From the NCBI GenBank assembly GCA_946490195.1, contig CAMLWN010000001.1, positions 238 to 64,237 on the forward strand: DNA of 64,000 bases, given 5' to 3'. The notes below the pieces were generated by a model that did no database searches, had not been told where the DNA came from, and saw only the letters and a list, made by a program, of their open reading frames with translations. Position numbers and translations under genes: made by a program. The stretch comes from an uncultured Mycoplasmatota bacterium (GTDB taxonomy: Bacteria > Bacillota_I > Bacilli_A > RF39 > UBA660). This document shows positions 48,566-56,551 of the stretch, piece after piece (the first letter of the stretch is position 1; every line of letters begins with the position of its first letter).

Positions 48566-49115
48566 GTATGTAAAACACCTAAATTATCCAATAAACATTA
48601 AAAAGAAAGATGTAAAAATGGCCAAATATTTACTCACACAATTTGGTGGGGCAAATGGAGAACTCGCTGCTTCATTGAGATATTTCAGTCAAAAATTTTC
48701 CATGCCAGATGAAAAAGGAAAATCGCTTTTAAATGATATTGCTACCGAAGAATTAGGTCATTGCGAAATGATTTGTACAATGGTTCATCAATTGACCGAA
48801 AATGCAACAATTGAAGAACTAAAAGCAGAAGGCCTAGGTTCGATGTACACTGAACACGGAAAAGGAGTATATCCATCTGATTCATTTGGAAATCCATTTA
48901 CTGTAACTTACTTTGCAGTTACAGGAGATGTATTAGCCGATTTATCAGAAGATATGGCAGCAGAACAAAAAGCAAGAGCAACCTACGAAAACTTAATAAA
49001 TATGACAGATGACCAAGATATAATAGGAATACTACTTTTCTTAAGACAAAGAGAAATCGTTCATTTTAATCGTTTCAAAGAACTATACGACTATTACAAG
49101 AAAAAAGGATATTAA
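48558..49115 (+). CDS. cotJC: spore coat protein CotJC (Mn-catalase-like ferritin fold)
   Basis: MFKYVKHLNYPINI...AKYLLTQFGGANGELAASLRYFSQ aligns with the CotJC N-terminus. Confidence 0.8.
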   Translation: MFKYVKHLNYPINIKKKDVKMAKYLLTQFGGANGELAASLRYFSQKFSMPDEKGKSLLNDIATEELGHCEMICTMVHQLTENATIEELKAEGLGSMYTEHGKGVYPSDSFGNPFTVTYFAVTGDVLADLSEDMAAEQKARATYENLINMTDDQDIIGILLFLRQREIVHFNRFKELYDYYKKKGY

Positions 49116-49276
49116 AGGAAAAAATTTTAATCAAGAATAAGTAAAGAAAATAAAGTACTTATTCTTTTTTATTGAAAAAAAATAGGAAACACGTTACAAT
49201 GTATATAGAAAACTATATAAGGATATAATAAAATTGAAACAAAAAAATAAAAATTTTAAAAAAACACCCACACCCA

Positions 49277-49309
49277 TTGACAAATGGGGGGGGGGTTGTG
49301 TGATATAAT
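49277..49309 (+). promoter_or_regulatory. promoter of the DGR target gene: -35 TTGACA, 21-bp spacer containing G10 (49286..49295), extended -10 TGaTATAAT
   Basis: Consensus hexamers read directly from the sequence. The homopolymeric G tract makes the spacing 21 bp. Loss of 3-4 G would give an optimal 17-18 bp. Confidence 0.55.
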
Positions 49310-49337
49310 AAAAACATAAATAGAAGGGAATAAAAAA

Positions 49338-50603
49338 ATGAAACTAGAAAAATTTAAACAAAGAGATCCAAAGAAAATAGGAATAACGATATTTACCGTA
49401 GTATGTGTATTACTAGTAGCAGGAGTATTTTTCTACACATCATTTGCATCATTTCAAACTCAACAAGAATTTAATATTATTCATGGTACAGTAGGAAGTA
49501 ATGGAGATCTTTACTTTGCATTTTACGTAGACGATGTTATATCAAAGACAATGCCCCAAAAAGGAGAAGGATATGTTTTAGATAAAGAAAAAACAAATTG
49601 TACAAAGGGAGCAAGTGTCGAATTTAATGAAAACGATTGGTCTGTGAAAGTCTTAAACATGACAGAAACAAGAACAAAATGTACATTGTATTTTGAAAAG
49701 GAACCAACAGCAGCAGATACTATTTTAGCTAAAGGAGAAACAGAAGAGTTAGCCTATGATGGTACAGTTGATAACAATTTAAGATATATCGGAGCAAATC
49801 CAAATAATTATGTATCCTTCAATAATGAATTATGGAGAATCATCGGAGTATTTAATAATATAGATGATGGAACAGGAAAAAAAGAAACGAGATTAAAAAT
49901 CATAAGAGATGAACCTATAGGAAAATATAGTTGGGATAATAAAGCAAGTGGTACTGGATCATCTACTTCATCATCTGGAAGTAATGATTGGAGTGATAGT
50001 ACCCTACAAATCGTATTAAATGAAGGAGCATATTGGAATCGAACAAGTGGAGAATGTCCATATGGGCGAAACGGAGCTACAACGTCTTGCAACTTTAGTG
50101 CTACTGGCTTAACAGAAGAAGCAAAATCTATGATAAGTAATGCCAAATGGAACTTAGGAGGAACAGCAAGTTATACAAGTAGTAGTAATGGATTAGCAAG
50201 TCATTGGTACACATATGAAAGAGGCACAACGGTATATAGTGGAAGACCAACAGAATGGATAGGGAAAATAGGATTAATGTATCCAAGTGACTATGGCTAC
50301 GCAACAGCAGGAGGAAGTACAACAAATAGACAAACATGTCTAAATACTGAGTTATACAATTGGAGTGGTTATGATGATTGTTTCAATAACGACTGGTTAT
50401 ACACAGGATCATATCAATGGACCTTAACTCCCTGTTCCAGTTATGCGCACAGCGTGTTCTTTATGTACAGTCGTGGCGGCGTGAACGTGCTCGCTGCGTA
50501 CAGCACGAATGACGCGGTTTCCCCCGCCTTATATCTAAACTCTAACGTTAAAATAAGTGGAGGAGATGGTTCTTCTAGTTCACCGTTTATTTTAAGTCTA
50601 TAG
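49338..50603 (+). CDS. DGR target protein: membrane-anchored surface protein with C-terminal CLec-like variable domain
   Basis: Signal-anchor. The C-terminal VR (50426..50528) matches the TR except at TR adenines. The VR is GC-rich in an AT-rich gene. Confidence 0.85.
   Translation: MKLEKFKQRDPKKIGITIFTVVCVLLVAGVFFYTSFASFQTQQEFNIIHGTVGSNGDLYFAFYVDDVISKTMPQKGEGYVLDKEKTNCTKGASVEFNENDWSVKVLNMTETRTKCTLYFEKEPTAADTILAKGETEELAYDGTVDNNLRYIGANPNNYVSFNNELWRIIGVFNNIDDGTGKKETRLKIIRDEPIGKYSWDNKASGTGSSTSSSGSNDWSDSTLQIVLNEGAYWNRTSGECPYGRNGATTSCNFSATGLTEEAKSMISNAKWNLGGTASYTSSSNGLASHWYTYERGTTVYSGRPTEWIGKIGLMYPSDYGYATAGGSTTNRQTCLNTELYNWSGYDDCFNNDWLYTGSYQWTLTPCSSYAHSVFFMYSRGGVNVLAAYSTNDAVSPALYLNSNVKISGGDGSSSSPFILSL
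50426..50528 (+). repeat. DGR variable repeat (VR)
   Basis: 103-bp gap-free alignment to the TR. Of 22 mismatches, 20 fall on TR adenines. Aligned VR codons include TTT, TAC, CGT, GGC, CTC, GCT, TAC, AGC and GAC. Confidence 0.85.
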
Positions 50604-50621
50604 GATACCTAAAAATGGGGG

Positions 50622-50647
50622 CCCAGCCACGTGTAAAAGTGGCAGGG
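50622..50647 (+). other. GC-rich hairpin downstream of VR (candidate DGR homing-associated stem-loop)
   Basis: cccagccac-gtgtaaaa-gtggcaggg, a 9-bp stem with one mismatch. It is the only GC-rich non-coding stretch in the vicinity. Confidence 0.4.
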
Positions 50648-50741
50648 GAACGACTTCAGTTATCCACATCAAGATCAAGAAATGTAATAATACCTTTGAG
50701 TTTTTCAAAGTTATTATAAGGTAAATCTGTTATATAAAGGG

Positions 50742-50844
50742 AACTCCCAATTCCAGTAATTCGAACAACGTGTTCAATGTGAACAGTAATGGCAACGTGA
50801 ACGTGAACAATGCGAACAACACGAATAACGCGGATTCCCCCGCC
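50742..50844 (+). repeat. DGR template repeat (TR)
   Basis: Non-coding and rich in AAC/AAT triplets in the frame corresponding to the VR. It is 81/103 identical to the VR. Confidence 0.85.
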
Positions 50845-50937
50845 AGTCCTTATTATGATGAGTAAATATAGTTAAGGCTATATTTGAGAGTGAATAAGGC
50901 CAAGATTTGTCTTTGGTTTACAACCTAAATATACAGT

Positions 50938-51363
50938 ATGGATGGAGAGTATACGTACAAACCTATACACCATACTTTTTTAGAAAGGATAGAGTTTACT
51001 GTGAGTAAATATATTAAGCTTAAAAGAAAAGGAAAATTTTATGAAGTAAAACATGAAGATGATTATATTTTATGGTATTTATTAAGATATAAAATTCATA
51101 ATAATAAAGTAGGTTTTCCAGAAAGTTCTTTATTTAAAGTATTAGATATTTTAAAAGAAAATCAAGTAGGATATCGTTTATCTTTAGATGATGATTTAGG
51201 TTATATAAAAAGTACTACAGAAAATAAATATAAAGAAATTTTAGAAAAAGCTAAAAAAGAATGGATAAAAGAGAAAAAAGAAAAAGATTTATTAGAAAAA
51301 ATAAAAAAAGCTAAACAAGAAGATTTAGAAAAAGTTTTAAGTTATATAGAAAGTGTCTTATGA
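50938..51363 (+). CDS. DGR-associated accessory protein of unknown function (basic, helical C-terminus)
   Basis: ORF between the TR and avd. K/E-rich C-terminus. Confidence 0.4.
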   Translation: MDGEYTYKPIHHTFLERIEFTVSKYIKLKRKGKFYEVKHEDDYILWYLLRYKIHNNKVGFPESSLFKVLDILKENQVGYRLSLDDDLGYIKSTTENKYKEILEKAKKEWIKEKKEKDLLEKIKKAKQEDLEKVLSYIESVL

Positions 51364-51680
51364 AAGAAGAATTAAAAATATTTATTGAAGCAAAATCTTT
51401 TTTAGAAAAAATAACAGAATATAGTATCTATTTTTCAAAAAGAGAAAATATTTTTAAAAATAAAATTATGGAAACTAGTTTTTCTTTTTTAGAAAATTTA
51501 TATATTTATAATTATAAAAAAGAAAAGATAGAAATTTTATTTAAAGATGTAGCTATGTTAAATTATTATATAGAGTATGCTTATAAGAAAAGAATCATTT
51601 CTCATAAAATAAATAATGAATTAACTAATAAACTTTCTTTTATTTTAAGACTACTTTATGGTTTAAAAAATGTTTCTTGA
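51360..51680 (+). CDS. avd: accessory variability determinant (Avd)-like four-helix-bundle protein
   Basis: 106 aa, helical and basic. It ends in LSFILRLLYGL, which resembles the bAvd C-terminus (IAEVGRILG). It lies immediately upstream of the RT. Confidence 0.55.
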   Translation: MKEELKIFIEAKSFLEKITEYSIYFSKRENIFKNKIMETSFSFLENLYIYNYKKEKIEILFKDVAMLNYYIEYAYKKRIISHKINNELTNKLSFILRLLYGLKNVS

Positions 51681-51740
51681 ATTGTTACATATTTATAAAA
51701 AGAAATCAGAAAAAATACAAAAAATAAAAGAAAAGTTTAT

Positions 51741-52721
51741 TTGTTTGAAATATATAAAATGAGTTATATAAAAGAAATTGAAAATATTTTAGAAAGTAGT
51801 TATACATATAGTTGTAAATATCAAATCTTTTTAATTTTTGAACCTAAAGTAAGAGTAGTAATGAGTTTACCTATTAAAGATAAAGTATTAAATCATTATG
51901 TTACTAGATATATATTGATACCTAAATTGAAAAAATATTTAGATGAAAGAAATGTCGCGACTAGAAAAGATATGGGAGTAGGGTTAGCTAGAAAACTTTT
52001 TAAAAAATATTTGTGTAAAATGAAAAATAAAAATTTTTATATTTTAAAAATGGATATAGAAAAATACTTTTATCGTATAGATCATGAAGTATTAAAGAGG
52101 TTGTTAAAAGACAAATTAAGCGAAAAAGAATTTACTTTAATAAAAGATATTATAGATAGTACAAACAGGGAATATATTCATAAGAAAATTGAATTTTTAG
52201 AAAAGAAATATGGGATAGAGTTACCTAAATATGAGTATGGAAAAGGGTTACCTATAGGGAATATGACAAGTCAATTTTTAAGTGTTTTTTATTTATATAA
52301 ATTAGATCACAAAATCATCCATGATTATCATTTGAAATACTATATGAAATATATGGATGATTTTGTGATACTTCATGAAAATAAACAGTATTTAGAAAAC
52401 ATATTTTTAAAAATAAAAGAAGAATTAGAAACAGTATATAAATTAAAAATAAATAAAAAGAAAAGTTTAATTGTAAATAGTAAAGAAGGGATTACTTTTT
52501 TAGGAATTCATTATAAAATAAAAAAGAATAAAATAGTTGAGTTTTTACCAAATAAAAAGAAACAAGCAATAAGAAAGAAAATCAAGAAAAATTTTTTTGA
52601 ATTTAAGAATAATATGAAAAATATTGAAAGTTTATTTAGTAGTAGAGAATGCTTTTTACATAGTTATAAAGTGAGTAGAAAGTATATAAAAGAATTAATT
52701 TATGAAATGGAAAAGAATTGA
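51741..52721 (+). CDS. DGR reverse transcriptase
   Basis: RT motifs 1-5 are present: PIKDKVLNHYV, LKMDIEKYFYRIDH, GLPIGNMTSQF (the DGR-specific SQ motif) and YMDDFVIL. Size (326 aa) is similar to the Bordetella phage bRT. Confidence 0.9.
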   Translation: MFEIYKMSYIKEIENILESSYTYSCKYQIFLIFEPKVRVVMSLPIKDKVLNHYVTRYILIPKLKKYLDERNVATRKDMGVGLARKLFKKYLCKMKNKNFYILKMDIEKYFYRIDHEVLKRLLKDKLSEKEFTLIKDIIDSTNREYIHKKIEFLEKKYGIELPKYEYGKGLPIGNMTSQFLSVFYLYKLDHKIIHDYHLKYYMKYMDDFVILHENKQYLENIFLKIKEELETVYKLKINKKKSLIVNSKEGITFLGIHYKIKKNKIVEFLPNKKKQAIRKKIKKNFFEFKNNMKNIESLFSSRECFLHSYKVSRKYIKELIYEMEKN

Positions 52722-52974
52722 ATATCTAGAAAAATATTATTATGATAGTGTGATTTTATTTTTAGAAAAAAATAAATTGATAAGTTATGATGAAATATTC
52801 TATTTTTTTAAAACAAAAGAAGAGTTAGAAAAATATCAAATTTCTTATATAATTATTGAAAATTTAAAAATTATTCATTTTACTTTTTATAAAGAAAATC
52901 AATATTTTCTTTATAAAAATCTATTTTATTTATTAAAAAAGGAAAATGAAGTTTTCTTGGGAATATATAAGTAG
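52702..52974 (+). CDS. small hypothetical protein overlapping RT 3' end
   Basis: 90-aa ORF with no motif. Confidence 0.3.
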   Translation: MKWKRIEYLEKYYYDSVILFLEKNKLISYDEIFYFFKTKEELEKYQISYIIIENLKIIHFTFYKENQYFLYKNLFYLLKKENEVFLGIYK

Positions 52975-52986
52975 GAGGAAAACTTT

Positions 52987-53850
52987 ATGAATGAAATTGT
53001 AGAAGAATTAAAAATAGAAAAAATGATTTATGAAATAAGAGGAAAACAAGTGATGCTAGATAGTGATTTAGCTAAACTTTATCAAGTAGAAACAAAAAGA
53101 ATAAATGAAGCTGTAAGCAGGAATAAAGAAAAATTTCCTGTTAGATTTAGTTTCACAATTAGTGAGAAAGAATATAATCTTTTGAAGTCGCAAATTGCGA
53201 CTTCAAAAGGAGGCTCGAGAAAAGGTCATAGAGTGTTTACAGAACAAGGAGTAGCAATGCTAGCAACTATTTTAAAATCGAAAATTGCAACAGAAGTAAG
53301 CATTAGAATTATGGATGCCTTTGTAGCTATGAGAAAATATATTGGAAATAACTTGATTGAACAAAGATATATTAATCATTTAGTTATTGAACATGAAGAT
53401 AAGATTAAACTTTTAGAAACCAGTTTTGAAAAATTAGAAACAAAGAAAAATGAAATTTACTTTAATGGACAAATTTATGATGCCTATTCAAAGATTTTAG
53501 ATATATTAAGTGAAGCAAAAGAAGAAATTATAATCATTGATGGCTATGCAGATAAAAGTGTATTAGATATGATACGAAATACAGAAGTGAAAGTAATCTT
53601 AATTATTAAAAACTGTGGGAATTTAAAAGAGCAAGATATTTTAAAATATCAAGAACAATACAATAATTTAAATATTATTTATGATACTTCTTTTCATGAC
53701 AGATATATCATTTTAGATAAAAAAGTATTTTATCATTGTGGAGCTTCATTAAATCATGCTGGAAGTAAAACTTTTTCTATAAATACATTAGAAGATGAAA
53801 TGGTTCAAAAACTTTTAATAGATAAGATAGGAGAATTAGAATATGAATGA
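52987..53850 (+). CDS. ORF6N-domain protein with C-terminal HDRYIILD/ASLNHAG domain (copy A, intact)
   Basis: IRGKQVMLDSDLAKLYQVETKRINEAV...RVFTEQGVAMLATILKS is the ORF6N signature. The C-terminal domain contains FHDRYIILDKK...YHCGASLNHAGSK. Confidence 0.7.
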   Translation: MNEIVEELKIEKMIYEIRGKQVMLDSDLAKLYQVETKRINEAVSRNKEKFPVRFSFTISEKEYNLLKSQIATSKGGSRKGHRVFTEQGVAMLATILKSKIATEVSIRIMDAFVAMRKYIGNNLIEQRYINHLVIEHEDKIKLLETSFEKLETKKNEIYFNGQIYDAYSKILDILSEAKEEIIIIDGYADKSVLDMIRNTEVKVILIIKNCGNLKEQDILKYQEQYNNLNIIYDTSFHDRYIILDKKVFYHCGASLNHAGSKTFSINTLEDEMVQKLLIDKIGELEYE

Positions 53851-54358
53851 AATTGTAGAAGAGTTAAAAATAGAAAAGATGATTTATGAAATAAGAGGAA
53901 AGCAAGTGATGTTAGATAGTGATTTAGCTAAACTTTATCAAGTAGAAACAAAAAGAATAAATGAAGCTGTAAAAAATAATTTAGAAAAATTTCCATCACG
54001 TTTTTGTTTCATCCTAGACCAAGAAGAAATGTTTTTTTTGAAGTCGAAATTTTCGACCTCAAATACAAAGCAACGTGGTGGACGTAGGTATAATATAAGA
54101 GTTTTTACAGAGCAAGGAGTAGCAATGCTAGCAACTATTTTAAAATCCAAAATCGCAACAGAAGTAAGCATTCGAATTATGGATGCCTTTGTAGCTATGA
54201 GAAAATATATTGGAAATAACTTGATTGAACAAAGATATATTAATCATTTAGTTATTGAACATGAAGATAAGATTAAACTTTTAGAAACTAGTTTTGAAAA
54301 ATTAGAAACAAAAAGAATAAATGAAACTGTAAAAAATAATTTAGAAAAATTTCCTTAA
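53843..54358 (+). pseudogene. ORF6N gene copy B, truncated by internal deletion/recombination
   Basis: N-terminal ORF6N domain intact. After LETK the frame jumps back to the N-terminal sequence RINETVKNNLEKFP and stops. Microhomology at the junction is gaaacaaa.agaataaatgaa. Confidence 0.55.
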
Positions 54359-54400
54359 AGATTTTCTTGGAAATTAACGGATGAAGAAAGCAAAGTTTTT

Positions 54401-54625
54401 TTGGTCGAAATTTTCGACCAAAAAATAGAACGACGTGGTGGAAGATATAAAGAGCCTAGAGTTTTTACAGAGCAAGGAGTAGCAATGCTAGCAACTGTTT
54501 TAAGAACTAATGCAGCAGAAGAAGAAATCATAATCATTGATAGCTATGCATATAAAAAGCGTTTTATCGATGAAATAGTTAAAAATCTTTTAATAAATAA
54601 GATAGGAGAATTACAAAATGAATGA
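54401..54625 (+). pseudogene. ORF6N gene fragment C (central + C-terminal remnant)
   Basis: Encodes RRGGRYKEPRVFTEQGVAMLATVL, then jumps to EEEIIIIDSYAY...KIGELQNE. Confidence 0.5.
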
Positions 54626-55487
54626 AATTGTAGAAGAGTTAAAAATAGAAAAGATGATTTATGAAGTAAGAGGAAAACAAGTGATGCTAGATAGTGATTT
54701 AGCTAAACTTTATCAGGTAGAAACAAAAAGAATAAATGAAGCTGTAAAAAATAATTTAGAAAAATTTCCTGAAAGATTTTCTTGGAAATTAACAGACGAA
54801 GAAGTAAAAGGTTTTTTAGTCAAAAATTTTGACCGAAAAATAGAACGACGTGGTGGAAGATATAAAGAGCCTAGAGTTTTTACAGAACAAGGTGTAGCAA
54901 TGCTAGCAACTATTTTAAAATCGAAAATTGCAACAGAAGTAAGCATTCGAATTATGGATGCCTTTGTAGCTATGAGAAAATATATTGGAAATAACTTGAT
55001 TGAACAAAGATATATTAATCATTTAGTTATTGAACATGAAGATAAGATTAAACTTTTAGAAAATAGTTTTGAAAAGTTAGAAACAAAGAAAAATGAAATT
55101 TATTTTAATGGACAAATTTATGATGCCTATTCAAAGATTTTAAATATATTAAGTGAAGCAAAAGAAGAAATTATAATCATTGATGGTTATGCAGATAAAA
55201 GTGTTTTAGATATGATACGAAATACGAAAGTGAAAGTAATCTTAATCATTAAAAACTGTGGGAATTTAAAAGAGCAAGATATTTTAAAATATCAAGAACA
55301 ATACAATAATTTACATCTTATTTATGATACTTCTTTTCATGACAGATATATCATTTTAGATAAAAAAATATTCTATCACTGTGGAGCTTCATTAAATCAT
55401 GCAGGAAGTAAAACTTTTTCTATAAATACATTAGAAGATGAAATGGTAAAAAACAGTCTTTTAGAAAAACTTGCAAAAATCACTTGA
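54618..55487 (+). CDS. ORF6N-domain protein, copy D (intact)
   Basis: Full-length paralog of copy A (289 aa). Confidence 0.7.
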   Translation: MNEIVEELKIEKMIYEVRGKQVMLDSDLAKLYQVETKRINEAVKNNLEKFPERFSWKLTDEEVKGFLVKNFDRKIERRGGRYKEPRVFTEQGVAMLATILKSKIATEVSIRIMDAFVAMRKYIGNNLIEQRYINHLVIEHEDKIKLLENSFEKLETKKNEIYFNGQIYDAYSKILNILSEAKEEIIIIDGYADKSVLDMIRNTKVKVILIIKNCGNLKEQDILKYQEQYNNLHLIYDTSFHDRYIILDKKIFYHCGASLNHAGSKTFSINTLEDEMVKNSLLEKLAKIT

Positions 55488-55532
55488 CTTAGAGTCTACT
55501 TCAAATGTTATGATTTTATTGGGGATGAAAAA

Positions 55533-55907
55533 ATGACAATAAAAGAAGTTTCAGAACAATATAGTCTTTCAAAGGATACGTTGAGATATTATGAAAAAGA
55601 AGGCTTGATTGGACCAGTTTTAAAAGGAAGTAATGGGCAAAGAGATTATCAAGAAGAAAATCTTCGCCAAATCGAATTTATTAAATGTATGCGGAGTATC
55701 AATATTCCAATTTCAGAACTAAAAAAATATATGGATTTATATGCTTTAGGAGATGAAACATTAGAAAGTCGTAAAGAAATTTTAGAAAGACAAATGGATT
55801 CTATTAATAAACAAATGAAAGATTTAGAACTTGCTAAAGAAAGATTAATAAAAAAATTAAAATTATATTACGAAGAATTAATCAAGAAAAGGAAAGGTAA
55901 ATCATAG
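55533..55907 (+). CDS. MerR-family transcriptional regulator
   Basis: N-terminal HTH MTIKEVSEQYSLSKDTLRYYEKEGLI and a C-terminal coiled coil. Confidence 0.75.
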   Translation: MTIKEVSEQYSLSKDTLRYYEKEGLIGPVLKGSNGQRDYQEENLRQIEFIKCMRSINIPISELKKYMDLYALGDETLESRKEILERQMDSINKQMKDLELAKERLIKKLKLYYEELIKKRKGKS

Positions 55908-55954
55908 ACTTTGCCTTTTTTTTCTGCTATAATTTCTGTAGATAGGAGAGTACT

Positions 55955-56551
55955 ATGGAAAAGAAAAAGATAGAAGAAAAAAAGCAAAAAAATAAAAAGA
56001 AAATGGAAAAAGAAAAAATAAGTGACGAAAAGAAAATTGAAGAATTTTTCTCACCAAATAAATATATTGTCGTGGGCATTCTTTTGCTGGGTGTAGTATT
56101 GGTTGCTTTAACTTTAGCTAGAATTTATGGAAGTACACAAAATATTGATTATTCAAAAAGTTATCTAGTGGATAAAGAAATCGTTCCAGAAATCACTTGT
56201 AATGATTTAGCTAACTCTATAAGCGGAGAAAGAAGTTTTATCTTTGTTACTCACTATGACTCTGAAGAAGAATATGAATTAGAAAAGGATTTAAAAGGGG
56301 TTATTGGAGAATATCGATTAAAAGATGATTTCTTTGTTTTTAAAGATGACCAAGAATGTGGCTCTATTAAAAATATAGAAGAAGGAAGTATTAAAGAAGC
56401 TTTAAAATTATCAGAATCCATTGACACAGTTCCTACCATTTTATATTATAAAGACGGTGAATTTGTTGACTATGTAAAAAGAGAAGATCCTAAGATGATA
56501 GAAGCAGCAGATTTTGTAAAATTATTAGATATTTATGAGATAACGAAATAA
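55955..56551 (+). CDS. membrane-anchored hypothetical protein (K/E-rich N-terminus)
   Basis: Single TM after a K/E-rich leader. Confidence 0.4.
   Translation: MEKKKIEEKKQKNKKKMEKEKISDEKKIEEFFSPNKYIVVGILLLGVVLVALTLARIYGSTQNIDYSKSYLVDKEIVPEITCNDLANSISGERSFIFVTHYDSEEEYELEKDLKGVIGEYRLKDDFFVFKDDQECGSIKNIEEGSIKEALKLSESIDTVPTILYYKDGEFVDYVKREDPKMIEAADFVKLLDIYEITK

Follow-up and report, generated by a model that had tools for sequence, protein, structure and literature searches.

We analysed a 64-kb stretch of DNA from an uncultured Mycoplasmatota bacterium (hereafter called "the window"), which carries four head-to-tail copies (A to D) of a gene for a protein with the ORF6N DNA-binding domain, at positions 52987–55487. 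In all four copies, the DNA encoding one segment of this domain forms a near-perfect palindrome, and an equivalent palindrome is present in almost all of the ORF6N genes sampled from bacteria, archaea and viral contigs. Self-complementarity of the nucleic acid inside the coding sequence is the target of selection, or at least of some process, and the palindrome is a dyad-symmetric, partly sequence-specific DNA element tied to ORF6N genes. We tentatively propose, with a probability of about 0.4, that this element acts at the DNA level, most likely as the candidate binding site of the ORF6N protein itself, and provides the gene with a portable autoregulation.

A palindrome within the ORF6N coding sequence

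All four palindromes of the window are odd-centred and occupy the same codons (65–75) of the gene, inside the Pfam ORF6N domain (residues 13–95). In copy A, two arms of 15 nucleotides (nt) with 100% complementarity flank one central base (53179–53209, CTTTTGAAGTCGCAA-A-TTGCGACTTCAAAAG). The encoded peptide is N-L-L-K-S-Q-I-A-T-S-K, and the centre falls on codon position 1, hereafter called the "type 1" frame. The palindrome of copy B (core 54037–54063, TTTGAAGTCGAAA-T-TTTCGACCTCAAA; 13+1+13) contains one A·C mismatch and reads L-K-S-K-F-S-T-S in the same frame. The palindrome of copy C, which lies in a pseudogene fragment, is again 100% complementary (54397–54425, TTTTTTGGTCGAAA-T-TTTCGACCAAAAAA; 14+1+14), and that of copy D is 86% complementary, with two non-Watson-Crick positions (54812–54840, TTTTTTAGTCAAAA-A-TTTTGACCGAAAAA; 14+1+14). 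These two read F-L-V-E-I-F-D-Q-K and F-L-V-K-N-F-D-R-K, respectively, with the centre at codon position 2 (the "type 2" frame). A preliminary description of this DNA had reported inverted repeats at one position in every ORF6N copy, and we found these repeats with the coordinates and peptides that it quoted. However, the arms are 13–15 nt long rather than 7–12 bp, the segment lies inside the ORF6N domain rather than in a linker, and the difference in frame between copies A/B and C/D had been missed.

How unusual are such palindromes? In the whole window, only copies A and C contain an odd palindrome that is perfect over arms of 10 nt or more, as compared to a mean of 0.28 such palindromes in first-order Markov simulations of 64 kb, in which no arm exceeded 12 nt. 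As single-stranded DNA, the palindrome of copy A folds with an energy of −15.4 kcal/mol (z = −9.8) and that of copy C with −12.5 kcal/mol (z = −5.0); the folding is weaker for copies B (z = −2.8) and D (z = −1.7).

In order to follow the element through the family, we used a sample of 80 viral loci and 80 genome loci (one genome per species; individual loci are given L-numbers). The genome loci came from Bacilli, Bacteroidota, Cyanobacteria/Melainabacteria, Campylobacterota, Desulfobacterota, Lentisphaerota, candidate phyla radiation (CPR) bacteria and archaea. A palindrome with a score of at least 8 is present in 109 of the 116 non-redundant ORF6N genes (94%), centred 42–66 nt upstream of the FTEQG codons. 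The carriers span Bacilli, Bacteroidota, Cyanobacteria/Melainabacteria, Campylobacterota, Desulfobacterota, CPR bacteria, archaea and viral contigs. The arms measure 10–17 nt around a centre of 1 nt (76 cases) or 3 nt (32 cases), and the near-perfect palindrome spans 27–35 bp overall. Since the initial loci came from peptide patterns, we added relatives with 31–41% identity, found by tblastn in plasmids and E. coli genomes. These also carry a palindrome at the equivalent position, namely in a Segatella copri plasmid, four Legionella plasmids, an Enterobacter plasmid and an E. coli prophage. The isolated-phage collection INPHARED held only five records with an ORF6N domain, all of them unannotated metagenomic phages.

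The enterobacterial subfamily has the palindromes ATTTGCGAGCCACTG-T-CAGTGGCTCACAAAT in the Enterobacter plasmid (L220, 1658–1688) and AATTTGCGAGTGACTA-A-TAGTCACGCACAAATT in the E. coli prophage (L222, 2218–2250); covariation between these two is complete over the inner 7 bp, and a C·A mismatch is common to both. A P1-like antirepressor gene (L221, 2162–3277), identified at the nucleotide level only, is a weak blastn homologue of this subfamily. At L050 (3225 and 3616), L052 and L142, the palindrome-encoding segment is internally duplicated in tandem (for example RSQIASSSLKSQNVIS and LRSQIMTAERGTEDETNLRSQFVTS), and the palindrome unit can thus duplicate inside a coding sequence.

Is the palindrome merely imposed by the peptide? 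The motif L-R/K-S-Q-I/F-x-T-S is conserved in many family members, and the palindrome might be its by-product together with codon bias; a trivial origin from a conserved peptide such as LKSQ..TSK had been considered in the preliminary description itself. We recoded a 33-codon stretch of each gene 200 times with the codon usage of that gene, which makes the control conservative because this usage includes the palindrome codons. The mean palindrome score is 11.0 in the observed genes and 5.0 in the recoded ones; 77% of the genes exceed all 200 of their recodings, and p is at most 0.05 in 96%. In copy A, the pairing is completed by the codons tcg and gcg, which are rare in this genome of 30% GC. 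Moreover, the reading register shifts by one base between the two arms, and synonymous sites are consequently paired with non-synonymous ones in the opposite arm. The third base of a Ser or Phe codon pairs with the second base of an Ala, Val, Gly or Glu codon in 98 of 101 sequences, in the combinations S[tcg]–A[gcg], S[tca]–V[gtg], F[ttc]–G[gga] and F[ttt]–E[gaa]. In one Legionella plasmid, the synonymous change gtC to gtG is paired with the change Gac to Cac, which replaces Asp by His.

The covariation test covered 76 distinct centre-aligned 31-mers and 12 base pairs; we denote by d how many nt a position lies from the palindrome centre, and the pairs run from d = 2 to d = 13. The cells are paired in 94.7% of cases, as compared to 73.1 ± 0.8% in shuffles. 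Double-change cells number 183 against 39.8 ± 6.7 in shuffles, a value reached in 0 of 500, although this count is not a probability because the sequences are related. Compensatory changes occur in 11 of the 12 stem pairs, and controls slid by 1–3 columns are paired in only 25–48%. Relatedness has no bearing on the slid controls or on the large number of independent pair types. The covariation among homologues and the recoding thus bear out the core of the earlier suggestion: what selection, or at least some process, acts upon is the pairing of the nucleic acid with itself and not a peptide motif.

Further evidence comes from the two reading frames. The type 1 frame, found in most genes including copies A and B, encodes L-[RK]-S-Q-[IF]-[AV]-T-S. 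The type 2 frame encodes L-V-[TEKA]-[NID]-[CF]-D-[RQ]-K in copies C and D, several Bacilli, archaeal and Margulisbacteria loci, Segatella and Legionella. A 17-nt core, GTCGAAATTTTCGAC, is identical in copies B and C but reads S-K-F-S-T in the former and the unrelated V-E-I-F-D in the latter. Copy C differs from copy B by one additional base on the 5′ side of the centre and one base less on the 3′ side, so that the frame is restored on either side. Conservation is hence stronger for the nucleotide element than for the frame in which it is read. The recoding, the covariation and the core read in two frames together refute the by-product explanation, for which we see virtually no chance.

Core sequence and copies outside the genes

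The usual consensus of the palindrome is TTGAGGTC-R-CAA-W-TTG-Y-GACCTCAA, with arms of 13–17 bp on either side of a single central A or T; 98 of the 101 sequences have one of these two bases at the centre. The core common to both frames is GGTC-N-[C/A]AA-W-TT[G/T]-N-GACC, in which the A–T pair at d = 2 (99%), the C–G pairs at d = 3 and d = 5 (about 80%) and the T–A pair at d = 6 (96%) are nearly fixed. The same four positions are also nearly fixed in non-coding copies, which defines a dyad core independent of coding.

These isolated copies, outside the ORF6N coding sequence, concentrate within about 1 kb of ORF6N genes. Their density is 0.33 per kb within 250 nt of the ORF6N domain, 0.09 at 250–500 nt, 0.05 at 0.5–1 kb, 0.03 at 1–2 kb and 0.005 at 2–3 kb, with none beyond 3 kb; 28 lie upstream and 16 downstream of the nearest gene. 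The exact GTC...GAC core is present in 34% of the odd palindromes within 1 kb, as compared to 11% of those farther away. An origin as remnants of decayed genes was rejected, as recognisable ORF6N homology surrounds only 4 of 39 isolated copies.

Sites in or near a promoter or 5′ region were found at eight loci (L053, L047, L083, L093, L101, L109, L122 and L202). At L101 (3461–3940), a TTGACA-17-TAAAAT promoter is preceded by four sites in tandem units of about 120 nt. The outer arms of these sites match the gene's own palindrome exactly, and the inner cores covary. The isolated copies of L093 and L101 are both located upstream of near-consensus predicted promoters. In L122 and L202, the isolated copy stops 2–5 nt short of the Shine-Dalgarno sequence. 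The 5′ region of L109 holds three sites, and in Bacteroidota viral contigs of the L053 type a single site precedes the start codon by about 50 nt. At L145, the imperfect palindrome of the gene is repeated without any change about 200 nt upstream of that gene. The spacing between upstream and intragenic sites, 239–387 nt, showed no obvious helical phasing in the few loci compared by eye, without a formal test. Further sites were found at L090 (4930–5115; three sites 75 nt apart, downstream of a gene with a degenerate palindrome of its own) and L095 (1470–1670 and 3580–3735; four intergenic sites). L101, L090 and L095 belong to uncultured Bacilli, and their arrays consist of 3–4 palindromes, spaced by 46–122 nt and each of a differing subtype.

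An exact scan of IMG/VR with the 21-nt core GAGGTCRCAAWTTGYGACCTC gave 53 matches: only 13 fall within ORF6N genes, and another 33 or so are intergenic hairpins between A-runs and T-runs at several phage-contig loci, with no ORF6N gene within the fetched stretch. Two arm-shuffled control palindromes gave 0 matches each in IMG/VR; a second natural variant, GAGGTTCCAAWTTGGAACCTC, also gave 0 matches there, which makes the scan with this variant uninformative. The terminator-like phage hairpins (AAAAAGAGGTCRCAAWTTGYGACCTCTTTTT; L161–L213, for example L169 10729, L176 5425 and L166 2460) carry the exact 21-nt core, and either follow capsid-like and Hsp20-like genes or sit between two conserved structural genes. 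Their core could reflect either a common recognition or the redundancy of a lineage.

Does the element function as DNA or as RNA? A hairpin in the mRNA and 5′ untranslated regions, serving in processing, stability, attenuation or translational autoregulation, would form a stable structure in the transcript. The copies that end just before the Shine-Dalgarno sequences of L122 and L202 would be well placed for it, and some of the phage hairpins with the 21-nt core have G·U on the strand of the T-run. However, G·U-type pairs are almost absent from the ORF6N palindromes, even where they would be synonymous. One-sided, wobble-type cells number 7 against the 183 double changes; Thr codons with a G partner are acC 50 times and acT once; and no G·T pair exists at d = 4 or d = 10. 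Mismatches are A·C in 43 cases and G·T in 20, although a strand inference from these types was discarded as too weak, being confounded by the Lys/Arg–Thr codon constraints. In addition, pairing extends to the single central base in two thirds of cases, which leaves no usable hairpin loop, and the L101 and L093 copies lie upstream of the predicted promoters. Rfam 15 gave no match at the palindromes (49000–56000, E ≤ 1). A Rho-independent terminator was also rejected: the hairpin is present, but the coding strand has no U-tract (the flanks are TCAAG/TCAAA), and no terminator-like call was obtained on the + strand at the window palindromes, with weak − strand calls for copies A and C only. A role as an RNA hairpin therefore appears rather improbable, and an element acting at the DNA level is favoured.

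Candidate function of the palindrome

The predicted protein resembles a regulator. The AlphaFold2 model of copy D (mean predicted local distance difference test score, pLDDT, 73) places the palindrome codons 65–75 in the C-terminal half of the helix formed by residues 60–71 and the start of the following loop, of which residues 73–80 have low confidence (pLDDT < 50). Foldseek matched this model best to TrmBL2/TrmB (E = 2e-7), which share the DNA-binding domain, long helix and PLD-like C-terminal fold; the PLD fold also matches NucT (6ehi, E = 5e-6) and PLD1/2/3. TrmB and TrmBL2 are dimeric or tetrameric DNA-binding regulators, and their PLD-like C-terminal fold is non-catalytic. In the ORF6N proteins, the catalytic motif HxK(x)4D(x)6GSxN is replaced by F-H-D-R-Y-I-I-L-D-x6-C-G-A-S-L-N, with Arg in place of Lys in 40 of 40 homologues, and nuclease activity therefore cannot be assumed. 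The helix-turn-helix-like helices at residues 25–45 are highly conserved, consistent with the conserved DNA core, and the palindrome-encoded segment is the most variable part of the ORF6N domain. A search of the PDB with the ORF6N profile retrieved no solved relative.

We propose that the palindrome is a cis-acting DNA element of the whole ORF6N gene family, located in the DNA for a structurally permissive helix end and loop of the DNA-binding domain. Watson-Crick complementarity and a few core bases would be kept, and the encoded amino acids, and even the frame, would be free to follow. The ORF6N protein, predicted to be a dimeric, regulator-like molecule with a DNA-binding domain, a long helix and a PLD-like domain, would bind the intragenic site, together with extra 5′ copies where these are present, and hinder the transcription of its own gene. 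Such autoregulation would travel with the gene, whatever promoter precedes it, and the DNA-binding specificity cassette would be genetically inseparable from its own site. This operator model is favoured because the core is conserved in both frames and in non-coding copies, and because of the 5′ locations and the regulator-like architecture; the binding and its autoregulatory effect are the most likely interpretation of these sequence and model data. An operator had been one of three candidates in the preliminary description. Of the other two, a recombination or nicking site is possible, and an mRNA hairpin is disfavoured because G·U pairs are nearly absent and some copies lie upstream of promoters.

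Several observations weigh against an operator. The window has no extra copy in a promoter region and carries the intragenic copies only. The enterobacterial palindrome occupies the same protein position with a sequence unrelated to the main core, so that at the deepest level self-complementarity is kept more than sequence. HK022 roi and the P1-like ant gene, both relatives, have no comparable palindrome, and the trait is thus not general to the Rha/KilAC relatives tested. Most of the sampled loci were retrieved via conserved peptide patterns, and the sequences are phylogenetically non-independent. Finally, a dimer on double-stranded DNA needs no symmetry at all 12–17 positions, and yet all are complementary. 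Uncontacted positions should drift; their complementarity is therefore the signature of intrastrand pairing or of copying between the arms. On this evidence, a hairpin or cruciform, or repeated correction by template switching, appears to contribute as well, and a combination of an operator with such processes is plausible.

Copying between the arms could in principle suffice on its own. An ancient palindrome in a tolerant protein segment might perpetuate itself without any cis function, as template switching or the repair of extruded hairpins copies one arm onto the other; sequence and peptide would drift, and complementarity would persist. In E. coli, the rates of such quasi-palindrome correction exceed per-site base-substitution rates by orders of magnitude. 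This process would explain the Watson-Crick-only pairing with almost no wobble intermediates, the complementarity up to the 1-nt centre, the location in the most variable segment of the domain and in a low-confidence loop of the model, the several paired changes between paralogs with flanks of about 99% identity, and the differing enterobacterial palindrome. However, it does not account for the core bases (A–T at d = 2, C–G at d = 3 and 5, T–A at d = 6) conserved in both frames and in the non-coding copies. It also leaves unexplained the clustering of remnant-free isolated copies in 5′ regions and arrays, as well as an occurrence of 94% in one family among thousands. We consider self-perpetuation as the sole explanation unlikely.

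The organisation of the window array bears on another explanation, in which the DNA hairpin or cruciform is a structure-specific site for recombination, nicking or breaks. The four genes lie on the + strand with overlapping stop and start codons. Copy A (52987–53850; 287 amino acids) comprises the ORF6N domain, a long helix and the C-terminal PLD-like fold, and copy D (54618–55487; 289 amino acids) has the same architecture. Copy B (53843–54358; 171 amino acids) is truncated and chimeric: after TTAGAAACAAA, its 3′ end enters the second KRINE-VKNNLEKFP segment of copy C. Copy C (54300–54625) is a decayed copy with an open reading frame left at 54401–54625; as compared to copy D, it has a stop codon (gaa to taa at 54356–54358) and two internal deletions. 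Copies A, B and D score 106, 121.5 and 101.9 bits, respectively, against Pfam PF10543, above the gathering score of 27.8 bits, while fragment C scores 21.6 bits and is under it. Around the palindrome, a cassette of about 115 nt (53117–53231 in copy A, with approximate limits; equivalents at about 53973–54100 in copy B and 54748–54875 in copy D) is highly divergent, and its flanks are 97–100% identical among the window copies. Within the cassette, the palindrome core forms a conserved island, and close homologues elsewhere are mosaic in this region. Since the flanks of all copies are 97–100% identical, the array appears to be undergoing recombination.

A break or gene-conversion hotspot at the palindrome could thus diversify the cassette of a defence-type gene, or the palindrome might be the substrate of a recombinase. 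The complementarity of all positions, the strong single-stranded folding energies and an A/T-rich centre that favours extrusion are consistent with this, as are the hypervariable, mosaic cassette roughly centred on the palindrome and the common occurrence of tandem arrays and chimeric or decayed copies. A tyrosine integrase gene also adjoins the ORF6N gene in three of the four Legionella plasmids. On the other hand, neighbour clustering in the 80 diverse genome loci revealed no conserved partner gene, recombinase, HUH nuclease or replication gene, so that the nearby cognate enzyme for which the preliminary description had advised a search was not found as a conserved neighbour. The rearrangement of copies B and C, which had been thought to coincide with the palindromes, lies away from them: its junction, a GAAACAAA(A/G)A..AATGAA microhomology at about 54300–54320, is about 90 nt upstream of the palindrome of copy C and about 250 nt downstream of that of copy B. 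Furthermore, the core sites of tyrosine or serine recombinases have crossover regions of 6–8 bp or 2 bp, unlike the 1- or 3-nt centres of the ORF6N palindromes. A structure-specific recombination or nicking site is accordingly a quite doubtful explanation. A recombinase or HUH hairpin site of the attC, REP, IS200/IS605 or dif-like kind was rejected, given that no cognate enzyme is conserved and that the arms are perfect, with only 1 or 3 nt between them.

In the three Legionella plasmids with the adjoining tyrosine recombinase/integrase gene (L216, L217 and L219), the ORF6N gene is divergent, and the intergenic region of L216 and L217 contains a separate 14-bp inverted repeat, TTTGGGGTAGATAA-N6-TTATCTACCCCAAA.

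Two of the window copies also match a candidate defence family: copies A and D align over their full length with the PADLOC PDC-S05 hidden Markov model PDLC04869 (E = 1e-90 and 2.5e-91; residues 3–286). One PDC-S05 representative, a different protein from the window copies and described with a RhuM domain, reportedly lowered the plating efficiency of T7 and T5 about 1000-fold (preprint, doi 10.1101/2024.09.26.614923). A more speculative idea, which we regard as improbable, is that the ORF6N genes are "self-addressed": the cassette DNA would be the cognate dyad or hairpin site of the encoded protein, site and reader would diversify as one unit, and PDC-S05 proteins may target phage hairpins. 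If so, this would explain the palindrome variants in tandem paralogs and the mixed-variant arrays beside the genes. The nucleic-acid element would take precedence over the protein, even across two frames, and PDC-S05 recognition could turn on the terminator-like hairpins of invading phages that share the 21-nt core.

Two neighbours of the array complete the description of this region. Directly upstream is a diversity-generating retroelement (49338–52721). Its target gene (49338–50603) contains the variable repeat (50426–50528), which is 79% identical to the template repeat (50742–50844), and the core mismatches are nearly all from A in the template to N in the variable repeat. A small open reading frame (50938–51363), an Avd-like one (51360–51680; weak NCBIfam match, E = 6e-4) and a reverse transcriptase gene (51741–52721) follow. 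Directly 3′ of the array lies a gene for a MerR-family regulator (55533–55907).

Comparison with known systems

Our search of the literature on ORF6N, KilA-N/Bro-N palindromes, PDC-S05 and the core sequences found no description of this element. Intragenic operators, in-frame palindromic repeats and structure-conserved DNA hairpins are known kinds of element; what is new is a family-wide palindrome in the coding sequence of a DNA-binding domain, which overrides the peptide and is read in two frames, and this would surprise a specialist. It represents a nucleic-acid constraint that dominates protein evolution across a widespread domain family, affecting thousands of genes in bacteria, archaea, plasmids and viruses, including a candidate anti-phage defence family. 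The palindrome provides a defined candidate ligand of 27–31 bp, and hence a testable handle on ORF6N protein function. It is also a natural case for separating selection on DNA structure, co-evolution of protein and site, and mutational self-maintenance of palindromes. Ignoring it would mislead gene annotation, dN/dS selection models and synonymous recoding.

Which known systems does the element resemble? Auxiliary operators lie inside coding sequences in the cases of lac O2 within lacZ and gal OI within galE, and phage HK022 Roi was reportedly found by Clerget and Boccard in 1996 to bind a site within its own gene. HK022 Roi, with its Rha-like N-terminal domain and KilAC C-terminal domain, is a relative of the ORF6N proteins. 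These systems share with the ORF6N palindrome a dyad-symmetric site in an open reading frame, sometimes co-operating with a promoter-proximal site, and the reported Roi site, a precedent for the operator model, likewise lies in the gene of the DNA-binding protein itself. The ORF6N palindrome, a candidate site, differs in that it is near-perfect over 27–35 bp, is found throughout a Pfam family in the DNA encoding the DNA-binding domain, covaries, and is read in two frames.

The iterons of the lambda origin within gene O are similar in that the sites occupy a permissive stretch of their own protein's gene and are inherited with it as a unit. However, they are four direct iterons in an inter-domain linker with a role in replication, in contrast to a single palindrome within a domain. 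The ORF6N palindrome is strictly covarying and has neither an AT-rich unwinding region nor associated replication genes.

In integron attC sites, REP/RAYT elements and IS200/IS605 ends, complementarity is likewise conserved over sequence, and these sites are recognised as folded DNA. They are extragenic and imperfect, with extrahelical bases or guides and an adjacent integrase or HUH enzyme, and the ORF6N palindromes have none of these features. Bidirectional Rho-independent terminators are also perfect hairpins containing G+C, and the phage hairpins with the 21-nt core are flanked by A-runs and T-runs as terminators are; the ORF6N copies, in contrast, have no U-tract, lie in the middle of the open reading frame of an evidently expressed gene, and avoid G·U.

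Finally, in the Rickettsia palindromic elements a palindrome within a coding sequence imposes its peptide on a permissive region, and in quasi-palindrome mutagenesis the arms are homogenised by copying. The Rickettsia elements are selfish insertions of 100–150 bp dispersed among unrelated genes, whereas the ORF6N palindrome is about 30 bp long, ancestral, and held at one position in one domain family with conserved core bases.

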